DNA of 64,000 bases, taken from Scyliorhinus canicula (Eukaryota). The notes under the pieces are model-generated. The model was given only the letters and a program-made list of their open reading frames with translations, was not told the DNA's origin and did not search any database. The position numbers and the translations under genes were made by a program. The stretch lies in contig NC_052150.1 of the NCBI RefSeq assembly GCF_902713615.1, forward strand, positions 98,941,441 through 99,005,440, in the 5' to 3' direction. Below are positions 31,977-56,679 of the stretch, in pieces; the first letter of the stretch is position 1; each line of letters opens with the position of its first letter.

Positions 31977-32199
31977 AAAAAAAAAATTTTGAGTAACCAA
32001 TTCATTTTTTTCCAATTGAGGGGTAATTTAGCGTGTTCAATCCACCTACCCTGCACATCTTTGGGTTGTGGGGGTGAAACTCACGCAAACACGGGGAGAA
32101 TGTGCAAACTCCACACGGACAGTGACCCAGAGCTGGGATCGAACCTGGGACCTCGGCGCCATGAGACTGCAGTGCTACAACTGCGCCACCGTTCTGCCC
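31977..32199 (-). mobile_element. Short V-SINE variant with A/T-rich tail
   Basis: 16-bp TSD TGCTATCCTC(A/C)TTTAA (31961-31976 and 32200-32215). Confidence 0.9.
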
Positions 32200-32884
32200 T
32201 GCTATCCTCCTTTAAGACCAGCGATAGGCAACCGAGGGCTGGTGAGTGGTCCACATGAGTCGACCTTCTTCTCAGTGGGCCACAACATTGCAATCGGGCA
32301 TGTCACTAACTGTGAACCCATGAAGATGATTAAATAGATTCAATCCAGAGGAGGTTTACAAGAATGGTCCCAGGGATGAGAAATCTCAGTTATGAGGATA
32401 GATTGGAGAGTTTGGGATTGTTCTCCTTGGAGAGAAGGTGAAGGGGAAATTTGACAGGGATGTTTAAAATCATGAGGGGTTGGACAGAGTAGACAGGAAG
32501 AAACTGTTACTGCTTGTAAAAGGATCAAGAACAGGAGGGCTGAGGCACGATCAATTACTCAAAGACAAGAGTTGGATGTAATCGAGGCTTTATTACACTA
32601 AGATGTGTGGCCTCCTACAGCAGCTGGCGAAGAGGCTGCTGTACTGGGAGCACACTTCATACACCGCCTACTGGGCGGAGCCAGCAGGCAGGGGACTAAC
32701 CGCATACCTGTAGTACAGGGCCTTACCACAAAACACCTACACCGACATCCTCTATATACAATATATACATCAGTGGTGACCACCACATTCACCCCCTGTT
32801 AAGATCGAGTCCGGCGGGGGTCGTGGAGAACTATATACAGGTAGACTTTTCAAAAAATTGAGTCCAGCAGGGTGGAGGAGAAAA

Positions 32885-35800
32885 TTATGTACAGAGGGAT
32901 GGTGTTTTAAAAGCCCAGATCATGTTACAGATTGATCTGCCGTTAGGAGCGCTGCAATGCTGGCGGTGATTCCGGTGTGAGTTTGGTCTTCGGTGACTCC
33001 GGGAGCGTGTCAAAATCCTCTTCATCCTCGGGTGTGGGCAAGGGGAGGATGGATTATCCTGGGGCGGGGTTTGCGGCTGGGCTCGTCGGGGGAGGGGAGG
33101 GTGGTGCTGGGTGGGAGGGGGAGCGTGTGGGGAACCAGCTGGTGCCAGGTCCCTGAGGGAGACAGTATCTTGCCGGCCGTCGGGGTACGCAACGTGGGCG
33201 TACTGTAGGTTGGCGTGAAGTAGCTGTACCCTCTCAACCAACGGGTCCGCCTTGTGGATCATACGTGCTTACAGAGGAATACGGGTCCTGGATCTGCGAG
33301 CCAAGTCGGGAGCGGACTTCCTGGGGACAGCAAAGAGACGATCATGGGGTGTTTCATTAGTCGCGGTGCACAGGAGCGACCGAATGGAGTGCAGGGCGTC
33401 GGGATGGACCTCCTGCCAGCGGGAGGCCGGGAGATTTCTGGACCATAGGGCCAGCTGGACGGCCCTCCAGACCGTCCCATTCTCCCTCTCCACCTGTCCG
33501 TTTCCCAGGTGATTATAGCTGGTCGTCCTGCTCGAGGCAATGTCCCTGTTGAGCAGGAACTGACGCAGCTCATTGCTCACGAATGAGGATCCCCTGTCGC
33601 TGTGGATGTAGGCGGGGAAACCGAATAGAGCGAAGATGGTGTTGAGGGCTCTGATGACTGTGGCAGACGTCATGTCGGGGCATGGGATGGCAAAGAGGAA
33701 TCTGGAATACTCATCGACCACACTGAGGAAGTATGTGTTATGGTCGATGGAGGGGAGGGGCCCTTTGAAGTCCACGCTGAGGCGTTCAAAGAGGTGGGAG
33801 GCCTTCACCAGGCACGCACGGTCTGGCCGGTAGAAGTGCAGTTTACACTCCGCGCAGACCTGGGAGTCCCTGGTGATCATCCTGACTTCCTCAATGGAGT
33901 AGGGCAGATTGCGAGCCTTGATGAAATGGGAAAACGTGTGACCCCCGGGTGACAGAGGTTGTCGTGCAGAGTTCGGAGTCGGTCCACTTGTGCGCTGGCA
34001 CATGTACCTCGGTTTAGGGCATTGGGGGGCTCGTTGAGCTTACCGGGGCGATACAAAATCTCGTAGTTGTAGGTGGAGAGCTCGATCCTCCACCTCAAGA
34101 TTTGATCCTTTTTGATCTTGCCCCGCTGTGTATTGTTGAACATGAAGGCTACCAACCATTGGTCAGTGAGGAGAGTGAATCTCCTGCCGGCCATGTAATG
34201 CCTCTAATGCCGTACAGCTTGAACGATGGCTTGGGCCTCTTTTTCGACGGAGGAATGCCGAATTTCGGAGGCGTGTAGGGTTTGTGAGAAAAATGCCACG
34301 GGGCTGCCTGCCTGGTTGAGGGTGGCAGCTAGAGCGACATCTGATGCGTCGCTCTCGACTTGAAATGGTAACGTCTTGTCGACTGCGTGCATCGCGGCCT
34401 TGGCGATGTCAGCATTAATATGGTTGAAGGCCTGGTGAGCCTCGGCCGTCTTGGGAAACAGAGTGGATTGAATGAGTGGACTGGCCTTGTCCGCATAGTT
34501 TGGGACCCACTGAGTGTAATAAGAGAAGAACCCCAGGCATCATTTGAGGGCCTTGGGACAGTGAGGGAGGGGAAGTTCCATGACGGGGCGCATGCGGTCG
34601 GGATCAGACCCCAGAACTCGGTTCTGCACCACATAGCCGAGGATGGCTAAGCAGTTCGTGCTGAATACATACTTCTTCTTGTTATAAGTTAGGTTGAGGA
34701 GAGTGGCGGTGTGGAGAAATTTGGCAAGGTTGGTGTCATGGTCCTGCTGATCGTGGCCGTAGATGGTGACATTGTCCAGGTACGGGAAGGTGGCCCGCAG
34801 TCCGTACCGGTCAACCGTTCGGTCCATTTCCCGTTGGAAAACCGAGACCCTGTTGGTGGCGCCAATGGGAACCCTGAGAAAGTGGTAAAGGCGGCCGTCT
34901 GCTTCGAAGGCAGTGTATGGGCGGTCCGCCTTACGGATGGGGAGCTGGTGGTAGGCGGATTTCAGGTCCACAGTTGAGAAGACCCGGTACTGTGCAATCT
35001 GATTGACCATATCGGATATGCGCGGGAGGGGTTACGCGTCGAGCTGCGTGTACCTGTTGATGGTCTGGCTGTAGTCCACAACCATCCTGTGTTTCTCCCC
35101 AGTTTTCACCACTACCACTTGGGCTCTCCAGGGGCTGTTGCTGGCTTCGATGATGCCTTCCCAAAGCAGTCGCTGGACTTCGGACCTGATGAAGATCCTG
35201 TCCTGGGCGCTATACCATCTGTTCCTGGTGGCGATGGGTCTGCAATCCGGAGTTAAGTTTGCAAATAGGGAAGGTGGGTTGACTTTTAGGGCTGCGAGGC
35301 CGCACACAGTAAGGGGTGGTAGGGGCCCGCCGAATTTCAGTGTTAGGCTTTGGAGGTTGCACTGGACATCCAGGCCGAGTAGCAGGGTAGCGCTGAGGTT
35401 GGGGAGGATGTAGAGGCGGAAGCCGCTGAACTCCATGCCCTGGACGGTGAGGGTGGCTATGCAGTACTCCCGGATTGCCACAGAGTGGGACCCAGAGACC
35501 AGGGAGATTCTACGGTTGGCGGGAGCAGTTCCTTACCATATCGGGATGAATTAAGCTCTCGCTGCTCCCGAAGTCCAGCAGACAGGAGAACTCGTGCCCA
35601 TCGATTTTCACGTTGGTGGAAGCAGTTGATAGGTTGTGTGGGCGAGGCTGGTCAATTGTGACCGAGGCGAGACATGGCTGGTCATCGGTGATGGCAGGCG
35701 ATGAGGTGCCTGGGGGGCATGGGTCCTGGTAAAATGGCGGTGCCTACGGGCCGTACGTATCGTGAGGAAGACAAGATGGCGGCGCCCAATGATCCTGGGG

Positions 35801-37490
35801 AGAACAAAGTCGGGGATTCTCCTCTACCCGGCGGGGCGGGGGTCCCGGCATGTTGGGGTGGCATGAATCACTCAGACGTCGGGCAGCCCCAAAGGTGCGG
35901 AAATCTCCGCACCTTTGAGGGCCAAGCTCTCACATTGAGGGGCTAGGCCCACGCCGGAGTGGTTCCCGCTCCGCCGGCTGGCATGAACGGCCTTTCGCGC
36001 CATGCCAGCCGGGGCCGAAAGGACTTCGCCGGCCGGCGTAAGCCCGCGTATGCGCCGGAGTGTCAGCGGCTGCTGACATCATATCGGTGCATGCGCAGGG
36101 GAGGGGGTCTCTTCCGCCTCTGCCATGGTGAAGAGAAAAAGAGTGCCCCCATGGCACAGGCCCGCCCGCCGATCGGTGGACCCCGAATGCGGGCCAGGCC
36201 ACCGTGGGGGCAGCCCCCAGGAACAGATCATGCCGCGCCCCCCACCAGGACCCTGGCGCCCGTCTGCACCGCCAATCCTGCCGGTAAGGTAGGTGGTTTA
36301 ATCTACACCGGTGGGAGAGGCTTGTCAGCAGTGGGACTTTGGCCCATCACGGGCGGGAGAAGCGCTGCGGGGGGGGGGGCCCGCCGACTGGCACGGCACG
36401 ATTCCCGCCCCCGCCGAATCTCGGGTGGTGGAGAATTTGGGACACGGTGGGGGTGGGATTGACGCCGGCGGGGGGTTGGAGAATCCCGCCCAAGATAGCG
36501 ACGCCCACGGGCCGCATGTAGTGGGGTTTGAACAGGATGGCGGCAGATCACGGGCCACATGTGGTCCGAGGGGGGGGAAGATGGCCGCATGTAGTGGGGT
36601 TTGAACAGGATGGCGGCAGATCACGGGCCACACGTGGTCCGAGGGGGGGAAGATGGCGGCAGCCACTGGTCGCACGTGGGGGGAAGTCGGAACAATAGCA
36701 GTGACTGCGCGGGCCTGGCACACCGCGGCAAAGTGTCCCTTTTTGCCACAGGCCTTGCAAAGGGTGCTCCGGGCCGGGCAACGCTGTCGGGGGTGTTTAG
36801 GCTGCCCACAGAAGTAACATTTGGATTCCCCAGGGTTGACTGGCTGCTGCGCGGCACAGGCGTGGGGTTGGCTGAGGGGTGTTCGCTGGTGAGGTCCACG
36901 ATGGAGCGGCCATCTGCTGAGTCCATGATGCACAGGAGGGGTGTACCGCGCTGCCAGGGGCCTAGGCCTGGATGTTGCGCGAAGCAACCCTAAGCGAGAG
37001 CGCTAGCATTTCAGTCTCCACAAGGTTGAGCGTGGCCCCTTCTAAGAGGCGCTGTCAGATGTAATTGGACCCTATCCCTGTGACAAAAGCGTCTCTCATG
37101 AGCAAGTTGGAGTGTTCCATGGCCGTGACGGCCTGACAGTTACAGTCTCTAACTAGGGGAATCAGGGCACGCCAGAAATTATCCACTGACTCACCAGGAA
37201 GTTGACGACGAGTGGAGAGGATGTGCCTGGCGTAGAGCGTTAGTCCGCTGAGCGTAGTTTTCTTTCAGTAGCGCCATGGCTTCTGCGTAGGTCAACACAT
37301 ACTGGATAAGTGGAAAGAAGTTGGAGCTCAGCCGCGTGAAGAGGATCTGAATCTTCTGAGCTTCTGGAATTTTGTCAGGCACAGATCCGATGTATGCTTC
37401 GAAACAGACTAGCCAATGTTGAAAGTCCTTTTTGGCGTTGTCGGATTGCGGATCCAGCTGCAGGCGATCCGGCTTGATGCAGAGGTCCAT
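32885..37490 (-). pseudogene. gag-pol of the Gypsy provirus, frameshifted and MITE-interrupted
   Basis: ATG 37490 MDLCIKPDRLQLDP; knuckles CYFCGQPKHPRQRC...CKACGKKGHFAAVC; protease LLDFGSSES; RT DLKSAYHQ/YLDN; RNase H ESDASD; integrase DFKGPLP, SDRG, GNGQVEREN. Confidence 0.93.
35809..36491. mobile_element. Harbinger-type MITE, family B
   Basis: TIRs GTCGGGGATTCTCC / GGAGAATCCCGCCC; reverse-complement homolog of 45094-45660; 3-bp TSD AAA/AAG. Confidence 0.88.
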
Positions 37491-37765
37491 CTTCTGAAAA
37501 CTTAGTGTAATAAATTGATGCACGATCAATTACACAAAGACGGGAGTTGGATGCAATCAAGGCTTTAATACACTAAGATGTGTGGCCTCCTACAGCAGCT
37601 GGCGAAGTGGCTGCTGTACTGGGAGCACACACATTTACTCCGCCTACTGGGCGGAGCCAGCAGGCAGGGAACTACCCCCGTACCTGTAGTACAGGGCCTT
37701 ACCACAAAACACCTACATCCTCTATATACAATATATACATCAGTGGTGATTACCACAAGGGCACA

Positions 37766-38410
37766 GGGCCACAATTCAGCAATTCACCCGCTGTGCCTGG
37801 CGCAGATCCAGGCACAACGGGTGAATCGCACGAGAGCCCCAAGCTGGGCCCCGCACTGAACGCAAGTCATCAGACTTGCTCTGCCTGGCGTATCTGCATC
37901 TTGCCCTCGCTGGGCGAGATCCAAATCTGAATATCTAAATGAGCCGCCAGTCACCCGGCATACCTGACCAGGGCACCGTTTAGTAACAGCATGCGGGGGG
38001 AGGGGGGGGGGGGGTGCTCCCAGGCCAATCGAGACACACGAGTGATCAGGGACAGGGCAGGGTTGTACCCTGCCACTCCCCCTGTCAATGCAACCTGGGT
38101 ACACTGATGCTAGGCTGGCAATGCCAGGATGCTCCGGCTGCTGGGTTGGTACTGCCAGGGGCCGGCCCTGGTGCTTTGCTACTGTGGGTGGGGGGGGGGG
38201 GAGATTTCCAGGGGCCTTCCCAAGGTGTGGGGGGGGGGGGGAGGAACTTGAAAGGGGGGTGTGGGAAAATCGGGGCAGCTGGTCAAAATGGCACCCCAAT
38301 CTGTGAACAGCAGAAATCTCTCAATGCGGCCTCGGTGGAGAGAAACTCCACGAGGTCGAAATAAACTGCAAAGTGCCATTGAATAGAGGGTGTTTCCCAG
38401 CTCTGCAGAC
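37766..38410. mobile_element. Probable non-autonomous Harbinger-type element
   Basis: GC-rich insert splitting the CR1 fragment; begins GGGCCACAATTC; AAAATGGCACCCC subterminal motif resembles the reverse complement of sequence near 48160. Confidence 0.55.
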
Positions 38411-39381: not shown

Positions 39382-39719
39382 GGGGCCTCACGGTAGCATG
39401 ATGGTTAGCATCAATGCTTCACAGCGCCAGGGTCCCAGGTTCGATTCCCGGCTGGGTCACTGTCTGTGTGGAGTCTGCACGTCCTCCCTGTGTGTGCGTG
39501 GGTTTCCTCCGGGTGCTCCGGTTTCCTCCCACAGTCCAAAGATGTGCGGGTTAGGTTGATTGGCCATGCTAAATTGCCCGTAGTGTAAGGTTAATGGGGG
39601 GATTGTTGGGTTACGGGTATACAGGTTACGTGGGTTTAAGTAGGGTGATCATTGCTCGGCACAACATCGAGGGCCGAAGGGCCTGTTCTGTGCTGTACTG
39701 TTCTATGTTCTATGTTCTA
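39382..39719 (+). mobile_element. V-SINE with a CR1 tail matching the CR1 at 3682
   Basis: Tail CAACATCGAGGGCCGAAGGGCC...(TGTTCTA)3 is nearly identical to the 3' end of CR1 3682-3745(-). Confidence 0.92.
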
Positions 39720-49373: not shown

Positions 49374-49565
49374 TGGGGCTGGTTTAGCTCACTGGGCTAA
49401 ATCGCTGGCTTTTAAAGCAGACCAAGCAGGCCAGCAGCACGGTTCGATTCCCATACCAGCCTCCCCGGACAGGCGCCGGAATGTGGCGACTAGGGGCTTG
49501 TCACAGTAACTTCATTGAAGCCTACTCGTGACAATAAGCGATTTTCATTTTCATTTTCATTTTCA
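49374..49565 (+). mobile_element. tRNA-derived SINE (non-V family) with (TTTTCA)n tail
   Basis: A-box TAGCTCACTGG, B-box GGTTCGATTCCC; flanked by CAAGTG(G) direct repeat. Confidence 0.85.
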
Positions 49566-56333: not shown

Positions 56334-56679
56334 GGGGAAGCGGTGGCGTAGTGGTATTGTCACTGGATTATTAATCCAGAGTACTATGGGATCGCAGGTT
56401 CAAATCCCGCCACTGCAGATGGTGACGTTTGAATTCATTAAAAATCTGGAATTAAAAGTCTCGTGATTACCATGAAACCATTGTCGTAAAAAGCCACCTG
56501 GTTCATTAATGTCCTTTCGGGAAGGAAATCTGCCATCCTTACGTAATCGACTAGATTACCTAATCGGGCCTATACGTGACTCCAGACCCACAGCAATGTG
56601 GTTGATTCTTAACTGCTCCTCAAGGGCAGTTAGGGATGGGCAATAAATGCTGGCACAGCCCATGAACAAATAAAAAAAA
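56334..56679 (+). mobile_element. tRNA-headed SINE sharing both 5' and 3' segments with LINE 50036-54270
   Basis: A-box TGGCGTAGTGG, B-box GGTTCAAATCCC; GGGAAGGAAATCTGCC...CCAGACCCACAGCAATGT; tail GGGATGGGCAATAAATGC plus A-run. Confidence 0.8.

Follow-up and report, generated by a model that had tools for sequence, protein, structure and literature searches.

Pairing of the primer-binding position with the LTR in a catshark Gypsy lineage, and its predicted role in self-priming

The 64,000-nucleotide stretch of the Scyliorhinus canicula genome analysed here (the window) contains a Gypsy retrotransposon whose 5' LTR is followed by no recognizable tRNA site, and this raises the question of what primes its reverse transcription. 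An earlier note on this DNA had pointed out that the primer-binding position is complementary to the poly(A) signal region of the element's own LTR, and had proposed that one stem serves tRNA-independent priming, hides the 5' poly(A) signal, or does both. The pairing is real and lineage-wide, and the sequences suggest a second variant of self-priming, with a mechanism that we infer.

The window element and its primer-binding position

The element is a decayed Gypsy copy of 5.2 kb, located on the minus strand and flanked by a 5-bp target duplication (GCCCT). Its 5' LTR (37516..37757, minus strand, 242 nt), its 3' LTR (32541..32787, minus strand, delimited from sequence and by repeat comparison), the TG...CA ends of both, the target duplication and a polypurine tract recognized from the sequence (32788..32800, minus strand) identify it as an LTR retrotransposon, while the domain order (gag, protease, RT, RNase H, integrase) is that of Ty3/Gypsy. 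The LTRs are identical at 224 of 240 aligned bases and the window copy is therefore old. The start of gag (37191..37490, minus strand) has its ATG at 37490 and a stop ends the frame after 99 codons; the remainder of gag with two zinc knuckles, the protease, RT, RNase H and integrase (32885..37002, minus strand) is broken by stops and frame changes. These coding pieces match zinc knuckle, protease (weakly), RT, RNase H and integrase models in Gypsy order. The nearest solved structure to the RT piece is that of Ty3, and the nearest named proteins to the element are those of catsharks. No Pfam chromo match was found in the window pieces, in five homologues or in the domain lists of the 120 homologues listed. 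Two Gag zinc knuckles are present in the window element and in 88 of 90 full-length homologues. Such a pair is typical of Mag elements, and the window element may on this basis be Mag-like. Motif searches of the PMC6238403 and PMC8556966 supplements, with four files outside their scope, gave no match by which to name the clade, and the matches of an Atlas search were unnamed CCHC/Gag clusters only.

Several further features of the locus were recorded. The RT active-site motif of the window copy is YxDN, not YxDD (RT piece 34543-35031); YxDN is also found in 57 of the 120 homologues listed (P0148, P0156-P0274), many of them with full-length open frames. A 67-nt unit occurs twice, 73 nt apart, in the gag-protease region (36510-36649), and a 22-bp inverted repeat with a 7-nt loop (37779-37829) lies in the flank directly outside the 5' LTR. 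The element is flanked by inverted copies of a short interspersed repeat (32021-32164 and 39419-39579), presumably a tRNA-derived SINE, and two ARAGORN calls with unusual anticodons (Phe aaa and Asn att, at 49376-49465 and 56337-56417) are probably SINE or pseudogene pieces. Two catshark gene models (P0002 and P0151) are named nuclear envelope integral membrane protein 1a, and their N-terminal ~100 residues are the Gag of this clade, absent from four other cluster members; this may be an LTR-driven first exon or an annotation artefact.

On the element strand, the 5' LTR ends in ...GCATCA and is followed by a single A (37515) and then by TTTATTACACTAAG (37514-37501), without TGG. The partner of this primer-binding position (37501..37514, minus strand), which starts 1 nt past the LTR, is an arm of the LTR and not a tRNA 3' end. 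In the 3' LTR, 32602-32589 is its exact reverse complement (an inverted repeat of 14 nt, 100%), and the arm copy there (32589..32602, minus strand) has an intact AATAAA and is complementary to 37514-37501 at 14/14 positions. In the 5' LTR, the arm (37564..37577, minus strand), which is the predicted self-primer, has ATTAAA as the poly(A) hexamer at its end and, read 37577-37564, forms 13/14 pairs with a single mismatch and a loop of 49 nt. The gag ATG at 37490 is 25 nt past the LTR. In all of these particulars the earlier note's description of the junction, of both LTR matches and of the short leader was borne out. When the LTR was shuffled 5000 times with dinucleotides preserved, the best 14-mer match never reached 13 (the maximum, 12, occurred four times), and a fold of 37640-37480 contains the stem with z = -3.85, none of 200 shuffles being equally stable. 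The 3' end of the arm pairs 1 nt from the LTR end, a polarity and position as for a primer. The arm is directly followed by GCC (37561..37563, minus strand), just before which a cut is predicted, and then by the 5' strand of an inner helix (37553..37560, minus strand) that pairs with 37533-37526; the 3' strand of this helix (37526..37533, minus strand) lies within a G/T-rich stretch of U5.

Variation of the stem in the catshark genome and across animals

First-look DNA searches of the genome gave 5277 candidates for the junction and 32548 for the gag start, which are not copy numbers. For scoring, 113 genome loci were gathered using the window DNA and four gag queries, namely the window's own and P0001, P0003 and P0004 (67, 48 and 43% identical to the window gag); a search of the same genome with P0006 at a strict cut-off gave no match. 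Eighteen loci without a junction by pattern and five that were out of register or had fewer than 10 pairs were set aside, and 90 copies were kept. No TGG was found in any of them (0/90) in the first few bases past the 5' LTR. Arms pair with the primer position of their own copy at a mean of 13.16 of 14 positions, compared with 11.46 for shuffled partners (0 of 10000 shuffles as high), and the 41 perfectly paired copies comprise eight distinct 14-mer pair types.

Alignment A2 holds 43 of the 90 copies, which were hand-picked for diversity in a choice that favours intact copies. Within it, 97.5% of stem cells are paired and seven of the 14 pairs show two-sided change. Two-sided-change cells number 66, against 17.4 after shuffling, counts that overstate independent events as the copies are related and the cells not independent. 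Controls with the stem alignment slid out of place pair at only 31-42%, and RNAalifold recovers the stem unaided. On a tree built from gag DNA only, about 20 two-sided changes were placed at stem positions 5 and 7-12, a number to which the out-of-register row L077 may add. The arm ends in AATAAA or ATTAAA in 83 of the 90 copies, and where AATAAA has become ATTAAA in one family, the partner strand changes along with it. Both checks that the earlier note had proposed on this point thus turned out in its favour: the primer position covaries with the AATAAA region (at 7/14 pairs of the alignment, and with about 20 two-sided changes on the gag tree), and sister families share the complementarity, the 90 scored copies averaging 13.2/14 pairs. 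The inner helix, of 8 bp within the loop and joining R to U5, is paired in 91.9% of cells and shows two-sided change in two of its eight pairs (28 cells, against 6.3 after shuffling). A candidate helix between R and the gag start was rejected as it showed no two-sided change.

These data also bear on the possibility that the primer position binds a tRNA half or another host small RNA, the LTR match being secondary. Half-tRNA priming is known in some Copia lineages, according to the available text of PMC6317226, and the host tRNA set that could be compared was incomplete (42 tRNA-like sequences with nine anticodon labels). Its best matches to the primer position, 10-11/14, are within the shuffled range (maxima 11-12). 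Since 7/14 of its positions vary among families along with the LTR, the site cannot have a host RNA of fixed sequence as its partner, and we regard this explanation as highly improbable.

Distant relatives were sought with homologue P0148, of which at most 36 residues in 100 are alike at the gag start; 606 proteins were found at E 1e-100 or better among 7987 candidates. Named homologues among the 120 listed are from aphid, damselfly, psyllid, moth, isopod, sea cucumber, snail and leafhopper, and the window RT piece is 54% identical to one distant homologue. An alignment of 55 distant homologues led to 80 metagenome loci, 27 of them with a gag start and 25 scored, whereas a search of viral_contigs gave no relatives. 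Of the 25 scored loci, 17 have an uninterrupted stem, 10-18 bp long, that begins 1-3 nt past a CA, and 15 of these stems exceed all 200 shuffles. In the other eight the scan for unbroken pairs gave 7 bp or fewer; one of these, L144, folds into an interrupted stem. When the loci were grouped by eye into 14 families, RCC followed the arm in 12 of them and opened a helix stacked on the stem in nine of the 14 folds. A canonical hexamer stands at the arm end in seven of the 14 families and none is there in the other seven; in L114 and L121 the hexamer is in the loop instead. With a canonical hexamer at the arm end in only 7/14 families, it is not the poly(A) signal that is kept across animals, as far as these metagenome contigs indicate, but the stem pairing together with the junction at its 3' end.

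The same comparison weighs on the proposal of a stem whose sole role is to mask the 5' poly(A) signal, as in HIV-1, for which there is precedent in the available text of PMC2645353, priming being left to something else. In the three copies folded, the hexamer is predicted to be paired in the 5' RNA (unpaired probability at most 0.08 in 3/3) and more open in the 3' RNA, and family-level change of the hexamer in this genome is limited to AATAAA and ATTAAA, the partner following. Seven of the 14 distant families, however, keep the stem position in the absence of a canonical arm-end hexamer. A mask would not need the fixed distance of 1 nt from the LTR end and would leave the element without a primer site. 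It would also tolerate G-U pairs, yet these make up only 4 of 582 paired cells in the stem; the inner helix has 59 in 316 and the U3-R hairpin described below 60 in 736, in counts of cells that are not independent. Masking as the sole function appears distinctly unlikely. For the families of this genome, the predicted pairing of the hexamer in the 5' RNA and the prevalence of AATAAA or ATTAAA at the arm make masking plausible as a second effect, whereas the distant families without a canonical hexamer at the arm end mean that it cannot be the general purpose. Of the double inference in the earlier note, tRNA-independent priming is the part with good, indirect support, from the missing TGG, the change of the site in step with the LTR and the signs of recopying given below.

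Transcript geometry and the candidate primers

Where the RNA begins decides whether the arm could be its 5' end. In the available text of PMC7175516, the RNase H of Tf1 cuts the self-paired RNA and the primer consists of bases 1 to 11 of the transcript. In the window, an initiator-like motif (37604..37610, minus strand) gives a predicted start at 37608, 31 nt upstream of the arm, and the place of the TATA box (37631..37640, minus strand), decayed in this copy, was located from its position in other copies. Of the 90 copies, 77 have a TATA box at a distance of 59-63 nt upstream of the arm, and in 70 of these 77 the initiator follows it by 29-33 nt. The A of the initiator (YYANWYY) is placed 31 nt upstream of the arm in 72 of the 90. 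Family L103-L113 has another promoter sequence with the same TATA/initiator spacing. From these motifs the cap is predicted ~31 nt upstream of the arm, and the arm is predicted to be internal, at about +32 to +45.

The plain Tf1 geometry, with transcription beginning on the first arm base or beside it so that the arm forms the 5' end of the RNA, is the only mechanism shown by experiment in the available texts of PMC7175516 and PMC4600332, and it explains the sharp boundary of the stem; Tf-type elements can, reportedly, use more than one start site (PMC5341516). The promoter spacing argues against it, all the more as it is retained where the promoter sequence differs, and an initiator motif is found within 5 nt of the arm start in just two of the 90 copies. 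We consider this geometry improbable here. The analogy to Tf1 suggested in the earlier note therefore holds for the pairing and probably fails for the geometry.

RNA reads from four raw-read runs of two studies cover the LTR, mostly with reads that are less than 95% alike. No piles of read starts or ends on the LTR and no loose poly(A) ends were found among the reads listed for these four runs, and a sequencing-run search gave no RNA run among the holders listed. In one of the studies, ten RNA reads from two runs lack a 109-nt piece of the LTR (window 37538-37648); on the element strand the gap starts with GT and ends with TC, and it may represent one deleted copy or an unusual splice.

A second structure adjoins the arm on its upstream side. 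The predicted U3-R hairpin (37578..37634, minus strand) is an inverted repeat centred on the predicted start that ends exactly at the foot of the arm, is also present in the matching 3' LTR stretch and could be complete only at the RNA 3' end. Its stability has a median z of -3.8, with z below -2 in 75 of 90 copies, and the inverted repeat is present with other letters in the L103 family. This hairpin is relevant to an alternative in which the primer is the arm copy of the 3' LTR: the RNA 3' end would pair with the primer position, the tail would be cut after the hexamer, and RNase H would trim the upstream RNA to leave exactly the arm on the cDNA. The same arm is indeed present in the 3' LTR and the hairpin stops at its foot, and such a primer would give a sharp arm boundary, leave a full-length R for transfer and remove the plus-strand stop problem posed by 31 unpaired upstream bases. 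The covariation of the U3-R hairpin is, however, weak (5 of 20 pairs, with 339 of 500 shuffles as high) and the hairpin is not evident in distant families; the inner helix between R and U5 forms most simply in the 5' RNA, and a local loop of 49 nt should fold faster than an end-to-end contact. Priming from the 3' arm is accordingly given a minor chance.

The mechanism that we favour, and hold to be fairly likely, is priming by the 5' arm. Transcription would begin ~31 nt upstream of the arm, which would fold back on the primer position. Cleavage by the element's own RNase H directly past the arm (...AAA/RCC) would leave a 3' end aimed at U5, with the arm as primer for the copying of U5. The first strand transfer would use the short stretch of R that lies between this cut and the poly(A) site, about 12-20 nt as estimated from the usual distance from hexamer to cut. 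When the plus strand is made, the arm would be copied back into the primer position, so that both stay perfectly matched, and in the families of the catshark genome the same stem would, as a second effect, hide the 5' poly(A) signal. The start site in this scheme is predicted from motifs, and the cut and priming are likewise putative. A primer with 31 unpaired 5' bases poses a problem for this scheme, in that the arm would have to be the point at which plus-strand synthesis halts.

Recopying would leave a signature. If the arm acts as a primer, plus-strand synthesis would copy it into the primer position, and following the general scheme of LTR replication a wobble pair would become a DNA mismatch and then be repaired; perfect pairing and abrupt two-sided changes are therefore predicted. 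Between the young copy L115 and each of three 99%-identical sisters there are 44-48 substitutions in ~4200, and 26 are private to L115. Among these are a G>T that both LTR arms carry and, at the primer position, the C>A that matches it. This matched double transversion is as recopying predicts; it is one event and may also have been given by selection. The near-absence of G-U pairs and the matched double transversion favour priming. Self-priming in one geometry or another is, in our judgement, very likely, and tRNA-independent priming is well supported, indirectly, by these patterns.

Relation to known systems and implications

Like the window element, Tf1 and Tf2 of Schizosaccharomyces pombe, Tj1 of S. 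japonicus and the Tf1/sushi group including plant Tcn1 are Ty3/Gypsy elements without a tRNA site. In common with that group, the position past the 5' LTR pairs with at least 10 bases of the LTR and a structured region adjoins the predicted cut. Lin and Levin (1997, 1998) reportedly described a structured region adjoining the cut in Tf1. The elements described here differ in that the arm is 14-16 nt long, is predicted ~31 nt inside the RNA, carries or lies near a poly(A)-like hexamer and is followed by RCC, and in that the proteins have two Gag zinc knuckles and no chromodomain match. Some chromoviruses also lack a detectable chromodomain. The elements thus appear to work like Tf1/sushi and are not classed there, given the missing chromodomain match and the predicted internal primer.

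In the available texts of PMC6317226, PMC4600332, PMC7175516, PMC6934838, PMC5006619 and PMC3601003, self-priming is stated for Tf1/sushi, Tcn1 and the plant TAR elements. For the TAR lineage of plant Ty1/Copia (Houba, Osr-1) it is a prediction, based on a match of 10 bp or more that the LTR shares with the bases following it; that lineage belongs to another superfamily and kingdom, and the available text of PMC6317226 does not mention an overlap with a poly(A) signal. The HIV-1 polyA hairpin also contains AAUAAA and represses 5' polyadenylation (PMC2645353, available text). It forms at both RNA ends in a tRNA-primed virus, whereas here the partner strand, being the primer position, is not part of the LTR and is present a single time. 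Mag and other animal non-chromovirus Gypsy clades (AB-clade, C-clade, CsRN1 and MolGy; PMC6238403) likewise have short LTRs with a clear AATAAA, a single compact gag-pol, no chromodomain and a wide animal range; primer sites are not mentioned in PMC6238403 (0 matches for PBS). No description of self-priming in this clade was found in the literature searched, with most subscription journals and Repbase Reports outside its scope.

Self-priming has so far been a matter of experiment in fission-yeast Tf1 and of prediction for its chromovirus kin and one plant Copia lineage. To this are added here the depletion of wobble pairs, the double change in a single copy, the spacing of the promoter motifs, the helix at RCC and the families without a canonical arm-end hexamer. 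Pairing, its position 1 nt past the LTR, two-sided change across families and the adjoining helix are observed features of these elements. Taken together, we lean, by a little, towards an animal-wide clade of non-chromovirus Gypsy elements that would use an internal RNA primer cut at AAA/RCC ~45 nt from the cap (or from the RNA 3' end) and recopy the site in each cycle, the stem in many families also switching off the 5' poly(A) signal; this would be a second geometry beside that of Tf1. An internal primer raises the question of how RT makes its cut within the RNA and comes to a halt at the arm.

A very abundant group of families in a vertebrate genome, judging by the first-look junction candidates, with relatives across animals, thus appears to need no tRNA. 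If this is true, these elements would lack the site at which tRNA fragments silence LTR elements (PMC7472051, available text) and would be missed by tRNA-based LTR annotation. It would also bear on whether hairpin priming is old or has arisen repeatedly, a question raised in the available text of PMC3601003.
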